Virus record (IMG/VR): IMGVR_UViG_3300045999_002371
Location: 12,312-76,311 of that record
Strand: one strand, 5' to 3'
Origin: a virus
DNA length: 64,000 nucleotides
The notes under the pieces were generated by a model. That model saw nothing but the letters and a program-made list of their open reading frames with translations. It ran no database searches and was not told the DNA's origin. This document shows positions 11,985 through 50,650 of the stretch, piece by piece. Position 1 is the first letter of the stretch. Each line of letters starts with the position of its first letter. Both the position numbers and the translations under genes were made by a program.

Positions 11985-12867
11985 ATTTTCCTGTCTGGAA
12001 CTCGTTCTTAGTAGCAACAGCCGTTGCCGCCAATGCATTAAAAGTCTCGTCAAAGGTTGCTTTTCTGTTCAGTAACCACCAACCAGCCATCGCTGCAGTT
12101 GCTCCTGATGTACCTGCAGTAAAACGCAAAGTTCCGTCTAATTGCCTTGCATTCCAGCGACCGTTTAAAAAGAAATCAGTCTGCCCTTGTGCGCCATTGC
12201 TGTAACGAGCAATGTATGGAGATGCGTTTGGGTCATACTCAAGAGGCTGTGAACCAGGCCATGGATTGTCTGTTGCTCCAACAGAGACTGTGTCTGTCAA
12301 ACACGCAGGAGCGTGTGTTGCAGTGCGATTACCGTTGTTACCAACAGCAGCAACTACTGGAACATTTACTGCTTTAAGTGCCGCAATGTTTTCAGCCAAT
12401 CCTGCTGGAACCTTACAGTTCGTAAAGATTGCACCTTGAGAGATGCTGACAACTGCAATGTTGTGTTTGACTCGGTTAGCAACAACCCAGTTAAGTGCGT
12501 TTTGCACGTCAGACAATGAATACAGACCTTGGTTACCACGAGAGGTCATACCTACAATACGAATAGGAATAACTTTTGCTGATGGGTTGAACCGAAGAAC
12601 CAAAGAGATCATCTGTGTTCCATGACTAAAGTTTCTGTCTGTTGTTGCTGGAAGATTTGCAGCGCCTGGGCCTTCCATAATCTGTTGACCATTTGGACAC
12701 TTAAATGATGACAGTAAACATACCTCGTAAGAGATACTGTCTTTAAACAACGCTGTGTTTGTTCCGTTATCAATAACAACAACTGCTGGTGGTACCTCTG
12801 CGTGTACTGGTACCGCCGTGGTACCAAGTACCATAATTGATACAAGTAGTGTAAGTAGTTTTTTCAT
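11968..12867 (-). CDS. secreted subtilisin-like serine protease (S8)
   Basis: Signal peptide MKKLLTLLVSIMVLG...VHA; catalytic triad motifs VIDNG, HGTQM, GTSGAT; oxyanion AAVGN. Confidence 0.88.
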   Translation of the reverse strand: MKKLLTLLVSIMVLGTTAVPVHAEVPPAVVVIDNGTNTALFKDSISYEVCLLSSFKCPNGQQIMEGPGAANLPATTDRNFSHGTQMISLVLRFNPSAKVIPIRIVGMTSRGNQGLYSLSDVQNALNWVVANRVKHNIAVVSISQGAIFTNCKVPAGLAENIAALKAVNVPVVAAVGNNGNRTATHAPACLTDTVSVGATDNPWPGSQPLEYDPNASPYIARYSNGAQGQTDFFLNGRWNARQLDGTLRFTAGTSGATAAMAGWWLLNRKATFDETFNALAATAVATKNEFQTGKYVRLP

Positions 12868-21948: not shown

Positions 21949-22910
21949 AAGTACGCCGCCTTGCCGTAGATCATGTCTCGTGCTGACTCGATGCTCTTAT
22001 GTATGTCACTCTCAATCATGTCACCGACATCTTTTACATCGATGCCTGTGTAGTTAAAGTAAGAAAGTTCAATACCGTACTTACGAGCATGAGCACGCAT
22101 CTCTTCTGATGCCTTCTGTCCAGCGCCATCGTTATCGAATGCGGCGATCACCCTTGGTGCACGGCGCATTATCTTTACCTGCTCAACGCTAGGCATCGCT
22201 CCATACGTAGATATTGCACTGTAACCAAGTCCGACTAGTCTGACCGCATCGAGTGGGGACTCCACAACAAGTAGTGGCGCATCTTCTCTCAGTATCTGCA
22301 CATTGAAAACTGTCTTTGACTTCTTAACTCCCTGCGGTTGATTGCGGAAGAAGCGACCACGAGCACCCTTCTCTTGCCAACCCCACAATGAAAAGTCATC
22401 GGGGTCTCTGATAGGGAGTATCCATGCAGCGTTCTTCTCATCCCACAACACTCCGCAAGTCTCTACGGCTTCTTGTGTTAGGAATCGTTTCTTTAATTCA
22501 ATTGCTGGTGGTGTTGTATACACAGCCAAACGAGCCTCTGACATTCCAATCGGATGTGCTTCGGCTTGAATGTACTCTGGCAATTCCTTGATGCGCCTCA
22601 TCAGTATGTCGATAGGCATATCTTCTTTGTCGTTTACATACTCACGGGCTTCGTGGTAATCAATACCTTTGATGTCTGCAACTAGTGTGTAGATGTTGCC
22701 CTTGTAACCGCAAGAGAAACAGATGTGTGCACCAGTCTCGGAGTTGATCCACCAAGAAGGGTTGTGATCTTCTTTACCTGTGCGCTTCTTGTGCATTGGG
22801 CACAAGCCATTGACCTCGATACCACGCTGTGCATACAGCGGGAGGTCTAGGGAAAGGAGAACACGCTCTACATCAATCACATGCGGTTCCAGTTCGAACA
22901 GTAAACACAC
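21945..22910 (-). CDS. dnaG: DNA primase (CHC2 zinc finger + TOPRIM)
   Basis: CPMH...CFSCGYKG, VVESPLDA, AFDNDGAG, KDVGD. Confidence 0.9.
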   Translation of the reverse strand: MCLLFELEPHVIDVERVLLSLDLPLYAQRGIEVNGLCPMHKKRTGKEDHNPSWWINSETGAHICFSCGYKGNIYTLVADIKGIDYHEAREYVNDKEDMPIDILMRRIKELPEYIQAEAHPIGMSEARLAVYTTPPAIELKKRFLTQEAVETCGVLWDEKNAAWILPIRDPDDFSLWGWQEKGARGRFFRNQPQGVKKSKTVFNVQILREDAPLLVVESPLDAVRLVGLGYSAISTYGAMPSVEQVKIMRRAPRVIAAFDNDGAGQKASEEMRAHARKYGIELSYFNYTGIDVKDVGDMIESDIHKSIESARDMIYGKAAYL

Positions 22911-24127
22911 TTTAACATCTCGTCCTCATCATGGAAGCAGCCAGTCTCCCAGCGCCATGTCAACGCTGTCTCGCTAGGTCCACAGTTACGAGATGCAACA
23001 ATCTTTAACAAACGAATCTCTTCATCTTCTTCTACTGGTTCAAGACCAAGGATTACATCTGAGTCTTGAAAGAATGAAGATGAGTAACCGATTGAATCGG
23101 CAGTAACTTTTCCAGCACGCATCTTCCACAACAGAGTCTGTGTAGTAATGATTACTGGCTTCTGAATTCTCTGGGCTAGACGCTTCAATCCACGAGTGAT
23201 GTTAGTGATTGCTTGTGGCGTATTCATCTCACCACTTACTTCGTCAAGCATCAAGTACACACCATCTACAAACACGATGTCTGGCTTTGTCTGTTCGATC
23301 TTTGCAGCAAGTGATGAGACTGTAATTCCGTTAACCGCATCTACCAAGTGGAAAGAGTGCTCCTTCTCCATCTCATTGAGTGTGTCAATGTATCGAGCCT
23401 CTTCTGCTGGCAATAACTTTCCACGACGCAAACGACCGTGTGAGATGTGGGCACGCATCGCATCATGACGTTGTTGTTGTTCGTGGTTGTTCATCTCAAA
23501 AGATTGGAACATAGGGATCTTCCCACCTCTGTGCACGTTGATCGCCATCTGTAATGCGATCTGTGACTTACCAGTTTTAGGTGGAGCGATGATAGTGATT
23601 AACTGACCAGACTGCAGTCCTGCAGTTGCTTCATCAATCTTTGCAAAGCCTGTAGGAATACCTAAGAAGGTTGAGTTCTGTAGAGACTGATACTCCTTAT
23701 AACGTTCTTCTGTGTTCTTTGTAAGGTCGATTTCGTGAGTTCCAAGGACACCTTGCTCATTAACCTTAGTGATCGTCGCTTCCATAGCAAGAAGAGCAGC
23801 ATCATGATCGTTGTCTTGTAGTTGCTCGATAGCATTCTCAAGACCTTGACGAGTAAGGAGTCGACGACGGAAGTCCACTATGGTGTCAAGTAAATACTCG
23901 ATGTTGTCTTGTACATCTAAGACTTTGTAATTTGGGTAATGATCTTTAACTGTTACAGCAGTAGGTACTTCGCTGTACTCGCCATAATGCTTACGTACAA
24001 AATCCCAAACTCTCTTGTTGTCATCATCTAAGAACCATGCATTGGTAACACCACGTTGTAGTGCTGGAACAATGTCTCGATCTCGAATGACCTTGCTGAC
24101 CAAGCGATGCTCATTGTCAGATGCCAT
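22877..24127 (-). CDS. dnaB: DnaB-like replicative helicase
   Basis: GIPTGF..ID..T.GLQ.GQL, APPKTGKS, SFEM, VFVDGVYLM, QDSD. Confidence 0.92.
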   Translation of the reverse strand: MASDNEHRLVSKVIRDRDIVPALQRGVTNAWFLDDDNKRVWDFVRKHYGEYSEVPTAVTVKDHYPNYKVLDVQDNIEYLLDTIVDFRRRLLTRQGLENAIEQLQDNDHDAALLAMEATITKVNEQGVLGTHEIDLTKNTEERYKEYQSLQNSTFLGIPTGFAKIDEATAGLQSGQLITIIAPPKTGKSQIALQMAINVHRGGKIPMFQSFEMNNHEQQQRHDAMRAHISHGRLRRGKLLPAEEARYIDTLNEMEKEHSFHLVDAVNGITVSSLAAKIEQTKPDIVFVDGVYLMLDEVSGEMNTPQAITNITRGLKRLAQRIQKPVIITTQTLLWKMRAGKVTADSIGYSSSFFQDSDVILGLEPVEEDEEIRLLKIVASRNCGPSETALTWRWETGCFHDEDEMLKCVYCSNWNRM

Positions 24128-24144
24128 TTAGTGCCCCCTCTTAC

Positions 24145-24708
24145 TTATTTTTCAAACGTCAAGTTTATTACACATCTATACAGGCTCTCTACAGGTGAGG
24201 AAGAGGCATGGTACTGAAGCCCATCAAATAGTATCCCAGTTCCCATTTTGGGAGAAATCCGTAACGCCTCATTCAAATCATCAACCTTAGGGATGACACC
24301 TTGCTGCCAAAACTTATCGAAGAAGACAGTATCACCATCTGAGTCATTAACGTAGTACAGAAAAACTAAGTGAGGAGCATCTCTGTCTATGTGAGGTAGG
24401 TGATGCTCGGAACTTAGTTGTCTAGTTAAGATGTTACTTTTTAAACGATAAAGTTCTTTGTTTTTTGCGTCTACACCGTGCTTATCAAAAAACTTTCCAG
24501 CAATACCCATTGTTTTTTTGAACATCGGATCTGATGGGGTAATGCTAGAAACAAACTGAAAACTATCAAACGAGGAGGGCAAGGCACCTCCGTCATTTCG
24601 AACAGTTGTAGTTGTTGGCATAAAAGACCAAGAAGATAGGGACAGTAAACTTTCTCTAAACTCTTCTTGTTCTTGGGTACTAATGAAGTCATTGTCAACG
24701 ATAAACAT
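24145..24708 (-). CDS. 2OG-Fe(II) oxygenase
   Basis: PHID...LYYVNDSDGDT, FDG..YHAS..P....R.VIN (HxD...H...R). Confidence 0.85.
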   Translation of the reverse strand: MFIVDNDFISTQEQEEFRESLLSLSSWSFMPTTTTVRNDGGALPSSFDSFQFVSSITPSDPMFKKTMGIAGKFFDKHGVDAKNKELYRLKSNILTRQLSSEHHLPHIDRDAPHLVFLYYVNDSDGDTVFFDKFWQQGVIPKVDDLNEALRISPKMGTGILFDGLQYHASSSPVESLYRCVINLTFEK

Positions 24709-24722
24709 CTGTGTTCACCCCC

Positions 24723-25139
24723 CTATAGATTCTTTAACTCTATACCTGCTGATCCATACCGTGCAACTCTTCCTGGAACGTCAATGACTCCACGCAAATT
24801 TGGACGGTAAGGAATTCCTGCAACTAACTCATCTGGGTTCTCGTAGAGTTGCCAGTAGTTAAATGGATTTACAACACGTTTTTCTAACTTGTCGAATGCC
24901 TTCTCAAGCAACTCCTCAGTCCAGCCCTGGTCTTCATAACCAGCCAACTCAAGAGAGATGCCGTAGTTGTTTGCAAGGTTCCACAACTTGTTGGCGTTCT
25001 GTAGGTCGACGTTACCAATCTTGTAATCAATCTTCTTTGACAAAAGTTTTCTGGTCTCTTCTTCAACCAACGTAATGACTACGTCAGTAAGGCACACAAC
25101 CTGTGGAGAGGAGACATTTGAAATGTCTCCGCCTTTCAT
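24723..25139 (-). CDS. conserved hypothetical phage protein
   Basis: 138-aa ORF starting MKGGDISN, ATGA-coupled. Confidence 0.7.
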   Translation of the reverse strand: MKGGDISNVSSPQVVCLTDVVITLVEEETRKLLSKKIDYKIGNVDLQNANKLWNLANNYGISLELAGYEDQGWTEELLEKAFDKLEKRVVNPFNYWQLYENPDELVAGIPYRPNLRGVIDVPGRVARYGSAGIELKNL

Positions 25140-25444
25140 ATGACCTCTACTTTAGCGTACTTGACCACGAAGTCACGAAACTTCTTCGGGTCATCGCTTG
25201 CCTCTACCGCTAAGTCCTCAGAAATCTCTGTAGGAACAAGAATTGAGTAGTGACCTTTGTTGTACCGCATCTTGTTCTGAACAAATAACACATGCTTACA
25301 TGAGGCTGTCTTACGCCATACAGGACAGTTGCATCGTGTCTTCTTTGATTCAGTATCGACTTCAACTTCAAAAATGCCAGCAGCCTGAGCAGAAATAAAC
25401 ACTTGAACGGTTCTCCATGGAGTTTCCATGCTCATACCTCTCAT
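25136..25444 (-). CDS. SWIM zinc-finger protein
   Basis: CNCP......CKH. Confidence 0.75.
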   Translation of the reverse strand: MRGMSMETPWRTVQVFISAQAAGIFEVEVDTESKKTRCNCPVWRKTASCKHVLFVQNKMRYNKGHYSILVPTEISEDLAVEASDDPKKFRDFVVKYAKVEVI

Positions 25445-26163
25445 TGTGCTGCTCGCAGGTCAGAACCAATGATAGGGACTCGGATAAATGCTTCGTGTGC
25501 GAAACTTGCCATCGCTTCCTTGTACTCCGTTTCCCAATCTTCTAGTCTAACATTTGTAGTTACGATTGTGGGCAGAGCCTTGTCGTATCTTAGTCTAAGG
25601 ATCTCATCAAATGAACTGTCATCATACTTAGACCCGTACTCTTTACCGAGATCATCGATCACAAGTATGCGAACATTAAGCCAGTCAAACTTCGAGCGTC
25701 CGTGAAAGCCGTCAAGTTCATAAACCATATTGCGCTTATCATCGTGATCCGCATCGAAGGTTGACTTTTTTCTGGACAAAAATTCTGGGTAGGTCATGTA
25801 GTAGATCGGCCTAGCGCTTAACCCGTAATCAGATGCGGTGAGTCCCAAGATCTTTGCAGCCTCTACGTCATCTTCTGGAAGTCTGCGAATAAACTCCATA
25901 GCCGCAACTACTGCGTGAGTCGTCTTACCAATTCCTGGACCGCCATCAAACAAGAGACCAACACCATTGATACCGATGTTGCCGATCTGCTTGATGACCT
26001 GACCACCGATCGCATCATCAATCCACGTTGCTACCTCGCTAGGAAACTCTCCAGCCCTATCGATGATGTCTTGTTGCTCAAGACCTAGGAAGCGACGTGG
26101 GATGTTAGAGGTTCTAAGAAGCCAGTGTTTCTTTAGTGCTGATAACTGATTGATGTCGTACAT
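25441..26163 (-). CDS. DnaC/IstB-like AAA+ ATPase (helicase loader)
   Basis: GLLFDGGPGIGKT, LVIDDLGKE, R.RYD..LPTIVTTN, G.DLR. Confidence 0.85.
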   Translation of the reverse strand: MYDINQLSALKKHWLLRTSNIPRRFLGLEQQDIIDRAGEFPSEVATWIDDAIGGQVIKQIGNIGINGVGLLFDGGPGIGKTTHAVVAAMEFIRRLPEDDVEAAKILGLTASDYGLSARPIYYMTYPEFLSRKKSTFDADHDDKRNMVYELDGFHGRSKFDWLNVRILVIDDLGKEYGSKYDDSSFDEILRLRYDKALPTIVTTNVRLEDWETEYKEAMASFAHEAFIRVPIIGSDLRAAQ

Positions 26164-26365
26164 ACCGCCCCCATTTAATCTTGTCCCAAATTCGTTCGTG
26201 CCAGTAGTAAATACCTACCTTAACAACTGTTTCCCAAAAAGCAATTAATGCTGAAAGAGTTCCTTCTCCAGTAATAACAAAAACCACAGCAAATGAGGAG
26301 AGTGTCCCAAAGACTCTGTAACTAATAGACTTGGTAAGAGACCTAGCCTTCGTTACCTTCATCAT
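26114..26365 (-). CDS. DUF2061-like small membrane protein
   Basis: RSL.KSISYR..GT, K..IYY.HERIW..I.WG; likely start at 26365 with GGAGG RBS. Confidence 0.8.
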   Translation of the reverse strand: MMKVTKARSLTKSISYRVFGTLSSFAVVFVITGEGTLSALIAFWETVVKVGIYYWHERIWDKIKWGRYVRHQSVISTKETLAS

Positions 26366-26450
26366 GTCCTCCCCATTTTTTATCAACAAAATAAACCATC
26401 ACATAAGCAATTACAAGAGAGGCAATAATAGCAAGTACTTCCTCTGACAT
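26343..26450 (-). CDS. 35-aa single-pass membrane peptide (not in ORF track)
   Basis: MSEEVLAIIASLVIAYVMVYFVDKKWGGHDEGNEG; starts directly after the cysC-like stop. Confidence 0.55.
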   Translation of the reverse strand: MSEEVLAIIASLVIAYVMVYFVDKKWGGHDEGNEG

Positions 26451-27212
26451 TTAAATTCCCATTTCTTTTCGTTTTTGTGTTGCAGAAATAGCCTGAATCT
26501 CTTGAGAAAGTTCAACTTGCTCAATCTTGTACCCAACATCTCGTCCGTAGACGATGTTCGTTATGTTTGGGAATCTTAGGACCATAGCGTTTTTCATTGC
26601 TAGGTCTTTGTCAATGTAGGACTTTACTTGATCAAAAGTTAATGGATCCTTCTCACTGGTTCCGTAGGTGTTACGAACACCGAGAACTACTTGATCGGTT
26701 CTCTTTCCAGCCTCATTGTAGAGGGCGTGGTGTCCTTCATGCCACGGTTGATAGCGACCAAGCATAAGTGTTGTAGGAGCAGACCAGTCGTGCAAACCAA
26801 AATGCTTTATGATTTGTGTAGCCTTTTGAGCCTGGTTTAATTCGTGGTCGTTATAGATTACGTCAAAGTTAACTGGCTTTTCAAACATCTTGTTGGTGTC
26901 TTCAAACCTACTCTCTTGAATGGTGTTCATCCAAATAAGAATGTCTGGCTTACCAAATGCTGCACGAGTTAGGTCGGTTGGACATACAAAATCCACAATA
27001 ACTGGAGCAACACCTTGTTTAGAAATGAGTCTTGCCATCTCACCCATACGACGTGCTTGCTCAATACGGTCGTCAACGGTAAACCCTAGATCAGAGTTTA
27101 CTGTTGCACGTACCTCATCTGCATTCAGGTGAATAGCATTAATTCTTTCCTTTAGTGTTTTTGCTAATTCAGTTTTACCTGATCCAGGCAATCCAATTAT
27201 TTGAATTATCAC
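26451..27212 (-). CDS. cysC: adenylylsulfate (APS) kinase fused to a HxGH nucleotidyltransferase (ATP-sulfurylase-like) domain
   Basis: GLPGSGKT, LNADEVR, DLGF...DR.EQARR, FE.P (CysC motifs); C-terminal GRYQPWHEGH, YGRD, ISAT..R. Confidence 0.8.
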   Translation of the reverse strand: MIIQIIGLPGSGKTELAKTLKERINAIHLNADEVRATVNSDLGFTVDDRIEQARRMGEMARLISKQGVAPVIVDFVCPTDLTRAAFGKPDILIWMNTIQESRFEDTNKMFEKPVNFDVIYNDHELNQAQKATQIIKHFGLHDWSAPTTLMLGRYQPWHEGHHALYNEAGKRTDQVVLGVRNTYGTSEKDPLTFDQVKSYIDKDLAMKNAMVLRFPNITNIVYGRDVGYKIEQVELSQEIQAISATQKRKEMGI

Positions 27213-27215
27213 TTG

Positions 27216-27524
27216 TTAGATAGCAACCTTGTACTCAAGCGCACCAGTAAATGCTGTTGGCTTTCCTTTTGCATCGACTGCTCCAGTCGCAACCATCTTC
27301 ACAGACTTACGAGGTGTGTGCTTCTGCACTTGTTCTTTAACCCAACGCTTTGCAGCAGACGCATTCTTCCATGCGGTGTACTCACTAATTCCTTCTGCGG
27401 GTTGCATAGAGTTCACTGACTCACCAGCCTCACGTTGTGCGCTGACAATAGCCAGCCAACCGCCAGCCTTCTCAGGATTGAGTGTGATTGTTGCTACAAA
27501 TGTTGCTTTGACTCTCTTAGCCAT
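27216..27524 (-). CDS. hypothetical protein
   Basis: 102-aa ORF with GAGGAG RBS. Confidence 0.7.
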   Translation of the reverse strand: MAKRVKATFVATITLNPEKAGGWLAIVSAQREAGESVNSMQPAEGISEYTAWKNASAAKRWVKEQVQKHTPRKSVKMVATGAVDAKGKPTAFTGALEYKVAI

Positions 27525-27657
27525 TCTTATTCTCCTCTAGTAGTTTTCTTATTTGTTTTTGTAAAAAGATGTTCTCTCTCCAAAACAAACCCATCACAGT
27601 TACTGAACCAGCAAGTGCAATAATGATTGCAATCATTGTCCCTGTATCTAAAATCAT
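27517..27657 (-). CDS. 46-aa membrane peptide (not in ORF track)
   Basis: MILDTGTMIAIIIALAGSVTVMGLFWRENIFLQKQIRKLLEENKNG; ATGA overlap with upstream stop. Confidence 0.6.
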   Translation of the reverse strand: MILDTGTMIAIIIALAGSVTVMGLFWRENIFLQKQIRKLLEENKNG

Positions 27658-28631
27658 TTATCTGCTCCTAATCTTTTTTCGTATCGCTCTAACTGTGCAC
27701 GACCAGACAACGAGTTCTGGAAGACCTTGCCATCGCTGGCGGTTAGGGTTGAGACCTTAACAGAGGTATCGACCTTAGCATTTACTTTGTTAAGCCCCAA
27801 ATTCTCACGGGCTTGGTTCATCTTCTTGCCAAATGATGCAAGGTACAACTTGTAGAGGTGGGGTGCCTCATCCCCAATGTTCTGGAAGTTGCGCTCATCT
27901 GCCATAAACAGTTTGAGCAACTCCAACTCGATTAGGGGAGTGGTCTGGTATTGCTTGCGGAACTTACTGAGTGCTCCCGACAACTGACGCACGTTGACTG
28001 TCCCTGGCAGGAGCGGGTAGCGTTTACCAACTCGATATGAGAATTCAGCAGCGACGTCCATGGGAGTCCACTCATGCTCAGGTCGCTTGCCTCTGGTCTT
28101 TGGGTCTGACTTGCGGATCTTCGGCTGAACAGCATCCCGCTCCTCAACAAGGCCGAAGCCTGCAAGATTGTCTGAATCATCTTCCCATTTTCTCATAGGC
28201 ACTCGTATCTCTTTCATTGAAACACCTTCGGTGTTTCTAATATCTTTTAATTGATTACTATCTTTGCTATTAGGTACTAATGACTTATTAGTAATATGGC
28301 TACGTGACTTATAGTCATGTGAGGTGTGGACATTTGCGTCCCCTAAGTTAGGGAACTCTAGCGTCCCGTTTGGGCTTGTAATGTCCAGTAAGTCTATCCC
28401 ACGGTATCCGTTGGCTCTCTTGGTTCGAGTTCGCTTGATGAAGCCAGCCTCTTCCAAGGCGATAAGGCCTCTACGGACGGTCTTCTCATGGACATTGCCA
28501 GTCTCTATACCAAGTTGGGCTGCTGAGGCCTTTAAACGGCCTTCAGAGCCCGCTAAATGGCATATGGTGGCCAACAGTCGGAACTGATAATCGGTTAGGT
28601 TGGCGCTATAAGCCTCGTGTGGGATTCTCAC
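27654..28631 (-). CDS. helix-turn-helix replication initiator-like protein
   Basis: N-terminal winged HTH (L....G.VHEKTVRRGL..LEEAGFI.R), low-complexity linker, upstream of a DnaC-like loader. Confidence 0.65.
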   Translation of the reverse strand: MRIPHEAYSANLTDYQFRLLATICHLAGSEGRLKASAAQLGIETGNVHEKTVRRGLIALEEAGFIKRTRTKRANGYRGIDLLDITSPNGTLEFPNLGDANVHTSHDYKSRSHITNKSLVPNSKDSNQLKDIRNTEGVSMKEIRVPMRKWEDDSDNLAGFGLVEERDAVQPKIRKSDPKTRGKRPEHEWTPMDVAAEFSYRVGKRYPLLPGTVNVRQLSGALSKFRKQYQTTPLIELELLKLFMADERNFQNIGDEAPHLYKLYLASFGKKMNQARENLGLNKVNAKVDTSVKVSTLTASDGKVFQNSLSGRAQLERYEKRLGADK

Positions 28632-29212
28632 GGCGTGTCGTCACCAAATGGGTTAATGTCCTTGGAGTTCAACTCTTCCTCCAGCCGTGCCGTGATGGTG
28701 TCCATCAAGGTGTCTAGGACTGAGGATGCGATGTAGGCAGAGAATACTTCGATGAAAGAGGTAAGGCTCTCCTGCATGGCATCGAAGAGTTCCTCTGTGG
28801 TGTCCTCCGTGTAGTCCATCTCGATGGGATTAAGTGTTCCCTTGATGTTCCACATCTCAAGGCCAAAATCCTCCAGCGAGTGAATGACCATGTGAGCCTC
28901 ATCTGAGTCATCCCATGCAATAGCAAGGATGTCATCTGGGGTGATCAGGTTAAGGAGTTCCTTGATTGGATTGGCGCAGATGGTTATCTGTTCTGAGTCA
29001 TCCTCTAACCCATCGATAGTAGTCTCTACATCTACATAGAGTTTAAAGTCTGCGCCTTGTTCTTTGACAGCATTGATCGCAGTCTCTGTGAATACGCCTC
29101 TAGTGATTACTGGAATAAGAACTTCACTCACATCTTCTTTGCCGAGTAATTCTACAAGCGGGTAATACACATCAGCGCTTGGATCAAAAGTTAATAAGAT
29201 CATCCGTTTCAT
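28628..29212 (-). CDS. acidic hypothetical protein
   Basis: 194-aa ORF, GTGA overlap with initiator gene. Confidence 0.7.
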   Translation of the reverse strand: MKRMILLTFDPSADVYYPLVELLGKEDVSEVLIPVITRGVFTETAINAVKEQGADFKLYVDVETTIDGLEDDSEQITICANPIKELLNLITPDDILAIAWDDSDEAHMVIHSLEDFGLEMWNIKGTLNPIEMDYTEDTTEELFDAMQESLTSFIEVFSAYIASSVLDTLMDTITARLEEELNSKDINPFGDDTP

Positions 29213-29221
29213 GTTGTGCCC

Positions 29222-29491
29222 CTATAGTCGTGGTAATCGTTGTTGTACAACCCTTGGTTTATTTAGAAATTTGCTAAGTAGAAGTGCAACTGTAGCAATA
29301 GCAGGTACAGCAATTATGAACTGCGTGTTTAATGGGGCTTGAGAGATCAAGGCGCCAAAACTTAACGGCAATGTTAAGAACTTGTTGAGTACAGGAACAC
29401 CGAAGAAACCTGCTGTAACAAGTTCTATAAACTCAATTACGTAAGTAACTGCGACTCCAGCAATCAGTATCGTGATAAGTAGGTCAACCAT
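29222..29491 (-). CDS. small multi-pass membrane protein (possible holin)
   Basis: 89 aa with about three hydrophobic segments and a basic C-terminus, at the end of the tail module. Confidence 0.5.
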   Translation of the reverse strand: MVDLLITILIAGVAVTYVIEFIELVTAGFFGVPVLNKFLTLPLSFGALISQAPLNTQFIIAVPAIATVALLLSKFLNKPRVVQQRLPRL

Positions 29492-29501
29492 GACCTGGAG
29501 C

Positions 29502-31442
29502 CTACACCGTCAGGTTGGTATATTCCACTCCATCATAAGTAGAGAGTCGCCAAAATGAGTTGGGAGGAACCCAGTTATTAAGGGTCTTTCCCAACCTAGG
29601 GATCTTTAGAGGCTTGTTGGGGTAGGCATGTGTGAAAGAGGAGTTGTCTGTGCCTTCCCATACCGCCCCGTATTCTGAGGGAAGTGATCCATCAAAGTAC
29701 TCTGTCGCAATTTGAGACTGCTCGAACTGTACTAAGTCTACGTAGTACGTGCCAGAGTCATTGAAGAGAATCTTCACTTTTGCATAAGACACTATCGATC
29801 CTGAGTCAGTCAATGCTGTCATACTCACTCTGCTGAATGAATCAGTGATTGCAAACTCAGACTCAAACTCCTCAAGAAGGTTGTCCTCTTCGTCAAAGAA
29901 TGCAATTAAACCAGTGACAGCAACGGAGTCATCAGAAGACACGTAGAAAGATAGGGTGTAGTACTTACCAGCAGTTGCTGGGATATTGTAATCCGTCTCT
30001 ATGCTACCTGTTGTAGCCACCACAAACTTACCGCTGTAATTCCCAGAGTAACCATCAGATGGAACTGCGGCATCTTGAGTAAAGTTGGCTCCCGTTAAGG
30101 TCCAGTCAGAATCATCTACTTCAAAGGATGGGTTCTTTATGTAATTAATTTTTGCAGAGTCAAGGAATACTGAGATTGCTCGTGCTTCGTCATACTCTAC
30201 TGTGTCACCTAACTGCACGCACACTTGGTCTACGTAATAAGTTCCTGCAGCGCTATACGCGATTTGAAGACTTGCATATGATGCATCTGCTGGGGTTGTA
30301 AATACTTTTGATGAACTCTTCCAAGTGTTGTTTGCAGCAACTGCTGTTGCAGATTGAGTGGTGCCAGTAATAGAGCCATTCTTATCGTAGAACTTGATAG
30401 AGAGCGTTATGTTTCCAGCACTAGATGGAGACTTTAACTTACAAGATACAACGTACTCTGTGTCTGGAAGAATCGGTACTCCTCGTGTGATGGGAGTGGA
30501 ATTCCCCAGTTGCATAGCACCAGAGCCTGAAGCAACAATCTTGCCTGTGTATTGGTTATCAATAACATTTGTTCCAGTGGCTGGTACTTGCTCCGTGCTA
30601 GAGGTTAGTGTCGCGTTGGTTGCAGTCCAGTTTCCGATTGACTCGTAGAATGTAGAGTCTTGAACTGATAGTAAAAGATTTGTTGACAAAGTAGTTGTTG
30701 GAGCAAACCCAGTCAAAGACTCTGCATAAGCATCGATACCTGTTTGCAATCCTTTGTGAGAGTACATAAATAGTGCTTCACGAATAAGTCTTTTTTGATT
30801 TTTTACTGGGATGGAGGGTTCGGGTGTTAATCCCAAACTAAGTGAGTTCTGACCTAAAGTTGAAAAGGCAATTCCTTCTGAAGAATGTTGTGGTCTTAAC
30901 ACATCTAGTTGTGTTAAAAACTGTTCATGAGTAAATGATATTCCACCCATAAACTTGTACAGAGCAGAGGTCTCGTCTGTAACTCCTAAGGGGCTTTGGA
31001 TTTCGCTGGTAAATACTTTAGGGATTATGTCCATAACCCTCTTGTGAACACCGTGATTAAATGGGATTAAGTCAGTTATTCTTCCAGCGTTAACCCAAAT
31101 TTTTTGGTCTGTGAATAGAAAAACTCCGTAATAGATTTGACGACCAGAAACGATAGGTGTTTGTTCTGGGTTTTCTTCGCCGTCTAGAAAAGATAGCCTT
31201 GTAACATTTCCTTCGGTTGCATCTTCTTCCCAAACTAACACACCGTCTTCTGAAGTTTCTGGGAATCCAAATTGATTTCTTACAAGTTTAATTTTTGTAA
31301 ATGCGCCTGTAGGGGATTGCCACGTAACTTCTGTTTTTGCGAAGTCAATCACAGTCAAAGACATAGGCTCAACTGAGTAAGCCAGTTTTGGACTTACACC
31401 ATAGTTGGCGCTTCCGTAAACAAAATTACCGTATTTAGCCAC
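29502..31442 (-). CDS. baseplate wedge/tail protein with two carbohydrate-binding-module-like domains
   Basis: Y..KG...GI..Y.E.LTG wedge-type block; NLL..QDSTF and NYIKNPSFE jelly-roll repeats ending YYVD.V; YFDGS. Confidence 0.7.
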   Translation of the reverse strand: MAKYGNFVYGSANYGVSPKLAYSVEPMSLTVIDFAKTEVTWQSPTGAFTKIKLVRNQFGFPETSEDGVLVWEEDATEGNVTRLSFLDGEENPEQTPIVSGRQIYYGVFLFTDQKIWVNAGRITDLIPFNHGVHKRVMDIIPKVFTSEIQSPLGVTDETSALYKFMGGISFTHEQFLTQLDVLRPQHSSEGIAFSTLGQNSLSLGLTPEPSIPVKNQKRLIREALFMYSHKGLQTGIDAYAESLTGFAPTTTLSTNLLLSVQDSTFYESIGNWTATNATLTSSTEQVPATGTNVIDNQYTGKIVASGSGAMQLGNSTPITRGVPILPDTEYVVSCKLKSPSSAGNITLSIKFYDKNGSITGTTQSATAVAANNTWKSSSKVFTTPADASYASLQIAYSAAGTYYVDQVCVQLGDTVEYDEARAISVFLDSAKINYIKNPSFEVDDSDWTLTGANFTQDAAVPSDGYSGNYSGKFVVATTGSIETDYNIPATAGKYYTLSFYVSSDDSVAVTGLIAFFDEEDNLLEEFESEFAITDSFSRVSMTALTDSGSIVSYAKVKILFNDSGTYYVDLVQFEQSQIATEYFDGSLPSEYGAVWEGTDNSSFTHAYPNKPLKIPRLGKTLNNWVPPNSFWRLSTYDGVEYTNLTV

Positions 31443-31455
31443 AGACTATTGCTCC

Positions 31456-31848
31456 TTAAGGACTGACTATGTCGCCGTAAACAACCCAAGAATCAGCATC
31501 TATCTTCATCAGAGTTGCTACTGAGTATTGTCCATTCAAAGCAACTGTACCAGTTGCGACTGATGAGTTGAGGTCTGCTACGTCCTCTGTAGTAATTGAC
31601 ACTTCTCCAGTTCCGTTTTGAACTACAACAAAGGTCTGACCAATACTGAACTCGTAAGTTGAGTCGTCAGGAATTGTAAGACTTACAGAAGAACTGCTCG
31701 AAAACACAATTGCTTTACCAGTGTCATTTACACCAAGGGTGTAGGAAGTCGAGGAACTGTCAACAACTCCACGTTGGTGTGATTGAGGTACAGCAGAGGC
31801 AACTGGAACCCATTCGGATCCAGACCACACATACGATGATTTTGCCAT
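31456..31848 (-). CDS. tail fibre-associated structural protein
   Basis: YTL...D.GK, TIP, F.IG, Q.GTG.V, QYS.ATL.K...D.W...GD module seen in phage fibres. Confidence 0.6.
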   Translation of the reverse strand: MAKSSYVWSGSEWVPVASAVPQSHQRGVVDSSSTSYTLGVNDTGKAIVFSSSSSVSLTIPDDSTYEFSIGQTFVVVQNGTGEVSITTEDVADLNSSVATGTVALNGQYSVATLMKIDADSWVVYGDIVSP

Positions 31849-49106: not shown

Positions 49107-49860
49107 ACGCTTTTCTAGTCCATGCGTTCCTTTTGTACCAACCATGTAAAGTGCTTCGTGCTTTTTGACGTGAACGAGCGCTCTCTTCATATAGGTTCGG
49201 GTTTAATTCTGCTTTCCACTCTTCTCTCTTAAAGGGGAAAACCTGCGCTATTGGAGTCCCTGCAGGGATTACTCCATAAAAATCTTTTTTAATAAAAACA
49301 GGGAAATTTCCACCACTTGTAAACTTGTCATTATCTATAACCCCTGTAACGGTTACGAATGGCAAATCAAATCTGTTTATAGGGTGGGTGTACAAAGCGC
49401 TATATCCTGCGGGTAGTTTGACTGCCCACGGAACTCTCCACGCCAAGTGTGTGTCGGCACACCCCATGGGTATAGGAAGTGTTGGGTTTAGATTTTGATC
49501 TCGAACTTCTACAGGCGCTAACGTTCCTGTCCAACTTAACTTAGATTTGGTTTCTTCTTCTGGGTCAACAGTTATCCAGATGTCTGTCCAAAGCGTAATG
49601 GTGTACCCCAAAGTAATTCCGTCAAAAAATGAAATACAACTTTTGAATCCTAAATCTGGAAGAAAGGACTCTTTTCTGGGGTCAAAACGATTGCTCGTAC
49701 GAAAAAAAGTAGCGTCTTTATACCAATCAGGAAGAAAGTTTTTTGCAGGAGAGGGAGGATCTAGTTGTGACAACTCTAGGCGTTGATCAGATAAAGTAGC
49801 ACCTGTAGCACAAAACTCAATCTTTTTTGTAGAGGAGTTTTGCTTCAAGAAGTTTTTCAT
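49099..49860 (-). CDS. paralog of 48381..49106 (DUF6065-like)
   Basis: LPDWYK, KSC..F.D....GY, PW...LP.GYS.L.THP.NR.DLPF....GVID.D, GTPIAQV.PFKR..W. Confidence 0.7.
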   Translation of the reverse strand: MKNFLKQNSSTKKIEFCATGATLSDQRLELSQLDPPSPAKNFLPDWYKDATFFRTSNRFDPRKESFLPDLGFKSCISFFDGITLGYTITLWTDIWITVDPEEETKSKLSWTGTLAPVEVRDQNLNPTLPIPMGCADTHLAWRVPWAVKLPAGYSALYTHPINRFDLPFVTVTGVIDNDKFTSGGNFPVFIKKDFYGVIPAGTPIAQVFPFKREEWKAELNPNLYEESARSRQKARSTLHGWYKRNAWTRKAFN

Positions 49861-50650
49861 CTATTCTCCAGTTTGTATAGGTTACCTTGTTATTGGGGTC
49901 TTTCAGAACCGTTTCATACGCCTGTAAAAACAACAGATCGCCTTCTTCTGGAGTAGATACTATGCTCTCTGTTATAGGGATGTCAACACCGTAGGTCTCT
50001 TGTAACTTTGTCAGAGTGTCAACACTCAACACATTTTTCCAAAAACCTGTATACCCATTACCCATAGGAGTTAATGCTTTTTTTACAGTTTTTTCTTTTT
50101 CTTCTAGTTCCACTGGGGTTCCTACTAGCCTAGTCAATAAAGCAAGTTCTTTACTCCTCGTTTCAGCGTCCTTAGAGGTTAGTGCGTCGTAGTTAACCAC
50201 AGGAAAATGTTTTTTCCACAAATTAAAGTTGTAGTAAAAAAAGAAAAAAGACTTTACTTGTAAAGAAGCAACAAATTCTGAAGAATTTATAGGTACATCT
50301 ACCTTGTCGAAAGCAGCGTAAGAAAGTAAGTTGTCAAGTAGATTACGCTCTACAACAAGGGTAGTGACTCCTTTTTCTGCCAGTAGAGTAGAGTGTAGAG
50401 AAGAAATCCCTTCTTCAGGCACTACTTTTCCGTCTTGTAGTCCAACAAAAGGTGCATTGTAAAAAGGGTGAGCGCCCACAACGTACTCAGAATAACGTGT
50501 AGGAAGAGGTGTGCTCCCCAACGAATACGGCAAGTAATATGGGAGGGCTAAACTTTTAGCAATACTTCGTACTACTAAGTGTGTTCCTGATCTAGGTATA
50601 GTTAGAACCACTATCTTAGTGGCTGGTTGCTCCATGTTATTGCTCCTCAT
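49817..50650 (-). CDS. PAPS-dependent sulfotransferase
   Basis: 5'-PSB loop TIPRSGTH, 3'-PB ERNLLDNLLS, C-terminal GYTGFWKN matching the GxxGxWK motif. Confidence 0.78.
   Translation of the reverse strand: MRSNNMEQPATKIVVLTIPRSGTHLVVRSIAKSLALPYYLPYSLGSTPLPTRYSEYVVGAHPFYNAPFVGLQDGKVVPEEGISSLHSTLLAEKGVTTLVVERNLLDNLLSYAAFDKVDVPINSSEFVASLQVKSFFFFYYNFNLWKKHFPVVNYDALTSKDAETRSKELALLTRLVGTPVELEEKEKTVKKALTPMGNGYTGFWKNVLSVDTLTKLQETYGVDIPITESIVSTPEEGDLLFLQAYETVLKDPNNKVTYTNWRIDEKLLEAKLLYKKD

Follow-up and report, generated by a model that had tools for sequence, protein, structure and literature searches.

To our knowledge, two enzyme types, Sat and CysDN, account for sulfate activation. Known ATP sulfurylases are also found fused to adenosine 5'-phosphosulfate (APS) kinase, in either order. 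The systems closest to the one described here are of this kind: the 3'-phosphoadenosine 5'-phosphosulfate (PAPS) synthases PAPSS1/2 (1x6v), the Aquifex aeolicus Sat/APS kinase (2gks) and the fungal ATP sulfurylase (1i2d) each join an APS kinase to an adenylyltransferase of the HxxH superfamily. Here we analyze a gene for a 253-aa protein in a 64,000-nucleotide stretch of lake-phage DNA (the window), positions 12,312 to 76,311 of the viral IMG/VR record IMGVR_UViG_3300045999_002371, which is 76 kb long and about 76% complete. The protein joins a short kinase to a C-terminal minimal HxGH nucleotidyltransferase (mini-NT). Judging from its fusion partners and its gene neighbours in phages and bacteria, the protein is probably a compact PAPS synthase, with a sulfurylase half of a new kind derived from nicotinamide mononucleotide adenylyltransferase (NMNAT).

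The window protein has the same kinase-then-transferase order as human PAPSS, and both halves of its model could be aligned with 1x6v (244 residues); the two domains are oriented differently relative to each other, with a root-mean-square deviation (rmsd) of 15.6 Å across both. Unlike PAPSS and the Sat-CysC proteins, which have about 550-630 residues, the window fusion has 253; its transferase, apparently NMNAT-derived, is about 110 residues long, the PUA-like domain and the QXRN, PFR and HAG motifs are missing, and the kinase lid is shortened. The gene family is already known and annotated as a kinase. Homologues of the fusion protein are likewise 253 aa long, with coverage of 100%, and their sources mostly annotate them as adenylyl-sulfate kinase; PHROG 10255 ("kinase") spans all 253 residues. 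The family is very common, with more than 4,000 close metagenomic relatives, and a megablast search of cultured phages with the region gave no matches. Among the papers searched, none dealt with the two-domain nature of the fusion or with a mini sulfurylase.

The kinase half

The AlphaFold2 (AF2) model of the fusion, built on 33 family members, was of high confidence (pLDDT 95.4, pTM 0.87) and placed an APS-kinase fold at residues 1-143. APS kinases were all of the top Foldseek matches to this model. With VIA, the nearest chain was Mycobacterium tuberculosis CysC (4rfv; Z 18.1, rmsd 1.6 Å, 127 residues), followed by other APS kinase chains at Z 16.4-17.3; the next family, gluconate kinase, gave Z 14.8, and nicotinamide riboside kinase Z 10.2. 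The Pfam APS_kinase profile (PF01583) matched residues 2-84 with 53.6 bits against a cut-off of 21.1, covering only profile positions 4-90 of 152. The kinase motifs comprise a P-loop (GLPGSGKT), NADEVR where canonical enzymes have DGDxxR, DLGF...DR...RR and a shortened lid (RFEDTN..FEKP). In the family alignment K13, D32, R35, F44 and R49 are conserved, and the retained residues fall in the part that corresponds to DGDxxR, DLGF and DR..RR of canonical APS kinases. Besides the Asn of NAD, the substitutions relative to CysC are Q for the N of DR..N.RR and CPT for ISP. The likeness to canonical CysC (PF01583, TIGR00455; 4rfv) thus lies in the P-loop fold, a Pfam score above gathering level and the retention of D32, R35, F44 and R49; the difference lies in the loss of about 35 lid residues and the failure to reach the equivalog cut-off. 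The model indicates that the N-terminal domain is a shortened APS-kinase fold, nearest in fold to true APS kinases.

The same short APS-kinase-like domain is found in ORF238 of Ralstonia phage phiRSL1, where the mini-NT is absent (L086 2989-6019). ORF238 adjoins a TET-associated glycosyltransferase (TAGT), an APH-kinase-like protein and nucleotidyltransferases. These surroundings look like a DNA-hypermodification cluster, and the short kinase may act on other substrates in some phages.

Descent and motifs of the mini-NT

The initial annotation had read the C-terminal domain as Sat-like, and had proposed a comparison of its fold with Sat on the one hand and with NMNAT and phosphopantetheine adenylyltransferase (PPAT) on the other. 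The latter gave the higher scores. When the 113-residue mini-NT was modelled alone (pLDDT 94.3), the best folds were Methanocaldococcus jannaschii NMNAT 1f9a and PPAT 4nah, both at Z 10.2; NadM and NadR folds gave Z 8.5-9.8, Thermus Sat 1v47 gave Z 8.3 (109 residues, rmsd 2.9 Å) and other Sat chains Z 5.4-6.2, all within the one superfamily to which the NMNAT, PPAT and Sat folds belong. Against the PDB, a profile of 25 stand-alone mini-NT proteins matched archaeal NMNAT 1f9a (E 1.6e-13); Sat chains gave no match at E <= 10. The Sat profile PF01747 had no match in the fusion protein at E <= 1, nor any at E <= 1e-3 in 21 long viral records that carry the fusion. Pfam CTP_transf_like matched weakly at residues 150-186 (E 8e-4), and the NCBIfam NMNAT models scored 22-29 bits against cut-offs of 127-181 (NF002243, 28.5/127; TIGR01527, 22.7/181.2). 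Because of the fold ranking, the profile matches and the silence of PF01747, we regard the mini-NT as, by descent, a stripped NadM-type NMNAT, homologous to NMNAT rather than to Sat.

The residues invariant in the mini-NT lie in GRxQPxHxGH, NP, GRD.G and S..xxR. The HxGH, the S.TxxR and the extra arginines hold across families that are only 36-48% identical. In the window the HXXH motif, which is common to the whole nucleotidyltransferase superfamily, is the family-invariant H158-E-G-H161. R180 is present in more than 90% of fusions, VR(D/N)T has a conserved Arg, and R224 of GRD is invariant. Sat is defined by the motifs QXRN, HXXH, VGRDHAG and PFR (PMC6607087). In the window the sequence YGRDVGY, of which G, R and G are invariant, comes after HxGH and before S.TxxR, an order shared with Sat, and has no HAG. 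The GRYQP that precedes HxGH is a NadM-type motif; it has the R and Q of QXRN, in an order and spacing that differ from those of Sat. Neither PFR nor a PUA-like domain is present in the mini-NT, which has no extra domain and is 113 aa long, against about 200 aa for the catalytic domain of Sat.

With archaeal and NadM-type NMNATs (M. jannaschii 1f9a; Francisella NadM 2qjt) the mini-NT shares the GRFQPxHxGH, NP and S.TxxR motifs; it is unlike them in having sulfur genes rather than NAD genes as partners and in falling below the NCBIfam cut-offs. It is also about 55 residues shorter than NMNAT, with some 30 internal residues after the PNIT strand and the C-terminal helices missing. In NMNAT structures the skipped internal segment holds the nicotinamide pocket. 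The mini-NT ends at the S.TxxR helix, has VR(D/N)T in place of the IGSA of NMNAT, and has gained the GRD.G loop.

Fusion architectures

When 1.8 billion representative proteins were searched with the C-terminal domain, 923 clusters at 50% identity were recovered. The family consists of stand-alone proteins of 110-135 aa and of fusions, among which APS-kinase partners occur in both orders. In P0128 a mini-NT that is 50% identical to that of the window is joined to a kinase scoring 233.6 bits with TIGR00455 (cut-off 138.7); P0270 is a mini-NT followed by a short kinase, and P0135 joins a DUF4118 membrane domain, a kinase and a mini-NT. On viral contigs the kinase and the mini-NT also occur as split adjacent genes, in either order. 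Since the mini-NT is fused to APS kinases in both orders, we read it as a candidate sulfurylase. Domains, fusions and neighbours agree with the proposal of the initial annotation that this kinase-nucleotidyltransferase fusion is tied to sulfate activation.

In L199, L200 and L203, DUF2061 and the mini-NT form one open reading frame (ORF), and no kinase was detected on the 8-11-kb contigs that encode these DUF2061-mini-NT proteins. A rare architecture, P0268, joins the mini-NT to a DHH/DHHA1-like phosphoesterase that may act on PAP or as a pyrophosphatase; its DHHA1 half reaches 23.6 bits in Pfam, below the cut-off, and has no NCBIfam match, so that it is a hint only. Apparent fusions of the mini-NT to chorismate synthase, DHQS and UCH were set aside, as they look like chimeric or fragmentary gene calls.

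Pathway gaps in bacterial carriers

Sat was found in none of 18 fusion-bearing alphaproteobacterial genomes. Five of the 18, among them the isolate Enterovirga sp. CN4-39, also lacked CysD, CysN above the cut-off and PF01507 (the PAPS_reduct family, which includes CysH), most of the genomes in this argument being metagenome-assembled genomes (MAGs) of unstated completeness. The fusion was the sole APS_kinase match in all five gap genomes, and three of the five had strong sulfotransferases. As no other source of APS was detected in these genomes, the fused domain would be the one that supplies it; an APS kinase would otherwise be pointless.

A related arrangement was found in a sample of 201 Alphaproteobacteria. 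Genome G210 (1.1 Mb; locus GC 24%) carries a five-gene row of sulfite reductase, CysH, DUF2061 (88 aa), a short APS kinase (167 aa) and a mini-NT (118 aa), the genes being co-directional and overlapping. No Sat or other sulfurylase was detected in G210, and its single PF01507 match was CysH. The operon argues for assimilation rather than sulfation in this bacterium. The initial annotation had suggested that the module of the window serves phage sulfation rather than host sulfur assimilation. That opposition is not established, given the sulfite reductase-CysH row of G210 and the detection of a sulfotransferase in only 6 of the 21 long viral records with the fusion. Neither Sat nor a PAPS_reduct-family protein was found in any of these 21 records. 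For the phage of the window, a PAPS supply for assimilation and one for sulfation are equally possible.

Sulfotransferases beside the fusion

Sulfotransferases with scores of 56-69 bits for PF13469 abut the fusion, upstream, on viral contigs L223, L214, L197 and L189, and PF13469 sulfotransferases lie within 4 kb of it on L173 and L242. Similar sulfotransferases have a base rate of 10 in 50,697 cultured-phage records. In Alphaproteobacteria, 80 loci from soil organisms were compared, with neighbour clustering and a filter on third-position GC (GC3) against antisense ORFs. The commonest immediate same-strand neighbour was a TPR-Sulfotransfer_3 protein (164 bits), whose gene lies 57-400 nt from the fusion, on the same strand, in 11 loci; a sulfotransferase domain was present in 16 of the 80. 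In genome G179 a sulfotransferase-like ORF begins 12 nt past the fusion. The co-occurrence of the fusion with sulfotransferases, proposed earlier as a check, was therefore found in both phage contigs and Alphaproteobacteria; the sulfation link is enriched around the fusion and is not universal.

In rhizobia, NodP and NodQ provide PAPS specifically for the NodH sulfotransferase. The likeness to NodPQ is that Bradyrhizobium-type loci keep a second sulfate-activation unit beside a sulfotransferase, besides housekeeping CysDN. NodPQ differs from the mini-NT in belonging to an unrelated family: it is a GTPase-coupled sulfurylase of the CysD/CysN type to which CysC is fused.

In the cultured Sano group the gene order is gp33 (a weak Sulfotransfer_4 match, 20.7 bits against 22.8), gp34 (NADAR) and gp35 (the fusion), as in Xylella phage Sano (L001 3957-5726). 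As gp33 is kept in 11 of 11 phages of the group, it is a constant companion of the fusion there, and the Sano group is a tractable laboratory system.

The initial annotation had pointed to a sulfotransferase in the same genome as the fusion, P0121. Its sequence carries PAPS-binding-like motifs; against the PDB it gave a weak match to SULT1C2 (E 1.5), and its nearest ESM-Atlas clusters carry Sulfotransfer_1 (PF00685; score 0.96) or Sulfotransfer_3. P0121 has no Pfam, PHROG or NCBIfam match and no match in phages, and a search of 5.8 billion proteins returned only itself and its own cluster; it is not conserved in relatives. On these sequence leads P0121 is probably a highly divergent sulfotransferase. 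The earlier identification is thus less secure, with motifs and weak leads in its favour; against it, the gene is an unconserved orphan without a family, 23 kb from the fusion.

Two further observations concern sulfation. Complete 115-kb relatives (G002:C1:31442-32847, and several places in G004) have runs of three to five ORFs of about 200 aa that barely reach sulfotransferase profiles; Pfam may undercount the phage sulfotransferases of this group because of their divergence. In an alphaproteobacterial MAG without canonical sulfate activation (L107:6966-10001), a 1011-aa secreted-type protein with FG-GAP, RTX and PPC domains ends exactly at the start of the fusion gene; it may be a sulfation target.

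Alternative readings

Several observations weigh against reading the 253-aa protein as a PAPS synthase. By descent the mini-NT belongs with NMNAT; of the Sat motifs, only HXXH and a bare GRD were found in it, and its predicted fold has just three clear beta-strands, so catalytic competence cannot be taken for granted. The kinase half scores 55.4 bits with the CysC equivalog TIGR00455, under the cut-off of 138.7, has Asn in place of the first Asp of DGD, and lacks the canonical lid, which is cut to RF.DTN..FE.P. On the genomic side, CysD-like genes are present in 13 of the 18 fusion-bearing Alphaproteobacteria, so the mini-NT is not always filling a gap, and the gap argument itself leans mostly on MAGs. 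Seven of nine complete phage genomes with the fusion have no Pfam-detectable sulfotransferase, and cellular DUF2061 genes are reported to be iron/Fur-regulated, with no known link to sulfur.

Some of these points would suit a protein in which the kinase half alone matters, a viral cysC-type gene turning host APS into PAPS, with the C-terminal domain a non-catalytic nucleotide-binding, regulatory or oligomerisation module. A parallel exists in the fungal ATP sulfurylase, which carries an inactive, allosteric APS-kinase-like domain. The annotation of the family as adenylyl-sulfate kinase, the heavy truncation of the C-terminal fold, the 13 bacterial carriers whose CysD-like genes could supply APS, and the interpretation of Lake Biwa viral CysC genes as auxiliary metabolic genes for assimilation (bioRxiv 10.1101/655167) all fit such a role. 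It is hard to reconcile with the invariance of HxGH and S.TxxR over hundreds of clusters, stand-alone proteins included, with the absence of a detectable APS source from G210 and the five gap genomes, or with DUF2061-mini-NT proteins on whose 8-11-kb contigs no kinase was detected, and we consider it unlikely. A two-step enzyme with another product, in which another small anion or phosphate ester, such as selenate, a phosphonate or a sugar phosphate, is adenylylated and then 3'-phosphorylated, is also rather unlikely. Adenylylation followed by 3'-phosphorylation is the chemistry of PPAT and dephospho-CoA kinase in CoA synthesis, and PPAT is a joint best fold for the mini-NT. The shortened kinase differs from canonical CysC, its phiRSL1 relative lies beside glycosyl- and nucleotidyltransferases of the DNA-modification type, and the 2-oxoglutarate (2OG)-dependent oxygenases, luciferase-like monooxygenases and halogenase near the fusion hint at other chemistry. 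On the other side, the kinase residues that are kept are those that align with the APS kinase motifs, and CysH, sulfite reductase, sulfotransferases and bona fide CysC recur around or within the family in independent lineages.

The descent of the mini-NT raises the further possibility of an NAD salvage enzyme, a NadR in reverse order, that would phosphorylate nicotinamide riboside, adenylylate nicotinamide mononucleotide and so rebuild NAD+ in the course of infection, for example against NAD-depleting defences. The C-terminal domain does match archaeal NMNAT, NadM and NadR best, both in sequence and in fold, and GR(F/Y)QPxHxGH is a NadM-type motif. We think this very improbable, given that APS kinase is a much better match to the kinase half than nicotinamide riboside kinase is, that a mini-NT is fused elsewhere to a kinase above the CysC equivalog cut-off, that the neighbours are sulfotransferases, CysH and sulfite reductase, and that the domain lacks the residues after the PNIT strand and scores far below the NCBIfam NMNAT cut-offs.

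Proposed function and host

For the reading as a PAPS synthase, the domain architecture, folds, motif conservation and patterns of gene fusion and neighbourhood were observed; from them we infer both activities, what the mini-NT acts on, which host is infected and what the membrane proteins do, as follows. The mini-NT would adenylylate sulfate (ATP + sulfate -> APS + PPi), and the lid-shortened APS kinase would then turn APS into PAPS by phosphorylating its 3'-OH. Like other fusions of a sulfurylase with a kinase, this one would help to drive the unfavourable first step. The membrane partners would be DUF2061 and, in a subset of phages, the 35-aa peptide; they may serve as a tether or connect the enzyme with the entry of sulfate. 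The infected cell would gain activated sulfate that its host may be unable to make, and this would feed phage sulfotransferases, sulfur assimilation or both.

The viral record has two WhiB genes and, among the runs listed, near-identical DNA was found in lake-water metagenomes only. Because of the WhiB genes and the lake origin, freshwater Actinobacteria are the probable hosts. No tRNA genes were found in the window. The acI Actinobacteria are without assimilatory sulfate reduction (PMC5301498). If the host is unable to make APS, a phage would gain nothing from a kinase by itself, which fits a two-step enzyme.

A broader proposal seems to us about evenly poised between right and wrong. It holds that the mini-NT represents a third, NMNAT-derived type of ATP sulfurylase, distinct from Sat and CysDN, which with the lid-less kinase makes the smallest known PAPS synthase; that it works with DUF2061, possibly coupling sulfate entry; that it is the only sulfate activator in some streamlined and soil Alphaproteobacteria; and that abundant lake phages spread it to hosts incapable of sulfate activation. 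If this is true, a third sulfurylase type of about 110 residues has been hidden in genes annotated "adenylyl-sulfate kinase"; genomes scored as incapable of using sulfate, such as those of streamlined aquatic bacteria, may activate it; viral "cysC" genes would be self-sufficient PAPS makers, usable in hosts such as acI Actinobacteria; and a very small, practical enzyme for making PAPS would be at hand. The association would also be a first functional lead for DUF2061.

Membrane partners and neighbouring genes

The features of the locus are collected in Table 1.

Table 1. Features of the fusion locus and related genes, in window coordinates.
Feature	Coordinates	Strand	Basis and remarks
253-aa fusion protein (candidate compact PAPS synthase)	26451..27212	-	GTG start; PHROG 10255; AF2 model
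N-terminal shortened APS-kinase fold, residues 1-140	26793..27212	-	Pfam PF01583, TIGR00455, VIA, Foldseek
C-terminal mini-NT, residues 141-253 (minimal HxGH nucleotidyltransferase, candidate ATP sulfurylase)	26454..26792	-	family alignment, fold, profile
35-aa single-helix membrane peptide	26343..26450	-	ORF and hydrophobic helix
DUF2061 two-helix membrane protein, 91-aa ORF	26114..26389	-	PF09834; likely start ATG 26365
Probable, highly divergent sulfotransferase P0121 (possible PAPS consumer)	49817..50650	-	motifs, weak matches
2OG-Fe(II) oxygenase-like gene	24145..24708	-	family comparison; possible functional tie to the fusion

The three minus-strand ORFs of the module (253, 35 and 91 aa) are tightly packed, and the coordinates and strand given for them in the initial annotation were correct. 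The motifs it named were located as well: GLPGSGKT at 27171-27194, GRYQPWHEGH at 26730-26759, YGRD at 26538-26549 and ISATQKR at 26469-26489. The coupling it described between the fusion, the 35-aa membrane peptide and the DUF2061 protein was also borne out. The 35-aa ORF begins with an ATG immediately after the TAA stop of the 253-aa gene, and GGAGGA, 5 nt ahead of ATGATG at 26365, marks the likely DUF2061 start, with its ribosome-binding site. PF09834 (DUF2061) matched the 91-aa ORF with 58.7 bits against a cut-off of 23.1, over profile positions 2-52 of 52 (59.3 bits in a second scan).

Of 80 related viral loci, 77 have DUF2061 next to the fusion; in these loci the fusion is about 81% identical to that of the window (80-84%) and DUF2061 about 47%. 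The other flanking genes of some 80 viral contigs (L004-L083) have no detectable similarity to the neighbours at 22000-31500 of the window. Fusion and DUF2061 behave as a conserved module in different phage backbones, one that has either been swapped between phage lineages or is far better conserved than its surroundings. The 35-aa peptide, one hydrophobic helix with KK(F/W)GG, has homologues in place in 5-8 of about 60-80 related loci. In the loci of soil Alphaproteobacteria no DUF2061 adjoins the fusion. A search for longer, fused forms of DUF2061 gave one uninformative match, the DUF2061-mini-NT forms having come from viral loci. A role of DUF2061 as a tether or a partner in sulfate entry is speculation.

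Up to three divergent DUF2061 paralogues surround the fusion in some phages (L004:234-431, 1829-2032 and 2020-2232, and similar loci). They are two-helix proteins with an invariant K, HER.W and G, and their presence together is suggestive of a hetero-oligomeric membrane assembly.

Genes for 2OG-Fe(II) oxygenases or hydroxylases lie about 0-2 kb from the fusion in the window and in 26 + 13 related viral loci, as well as in Stenotrophomonas phage DLP_6 and at one locus of Alphaproteobacteria (examples are L058:2340-2948, L036:3441-4004, L147:11478-12611 and L085:1474-2025). Their recurrence could reflect hydroxylation followed by sulfation, or merely a shared island of auxiliary genes. In related phages the island with the fusion also holds genes resembling tryptophan halogenase, luciferase-like (SsuD-type?) monooxygenase, GMP reductase/IMPDH and staphylococcal nuclease (L044:2680-4233, L034:3228-4004, L015:1737-2789 and L012:5016-5438), and luciferase-like monooxygenases occur near the fusion in Alphaproteobacteria too. 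In the window, a 102-aa ORF on the minus strand (25136-25444), between a DnaC-like loader and a 138-aa protein of no assigned function, has a CxC...CxH pattern (CNCPVW...SCKH) resembling a SWIM zinc finger.

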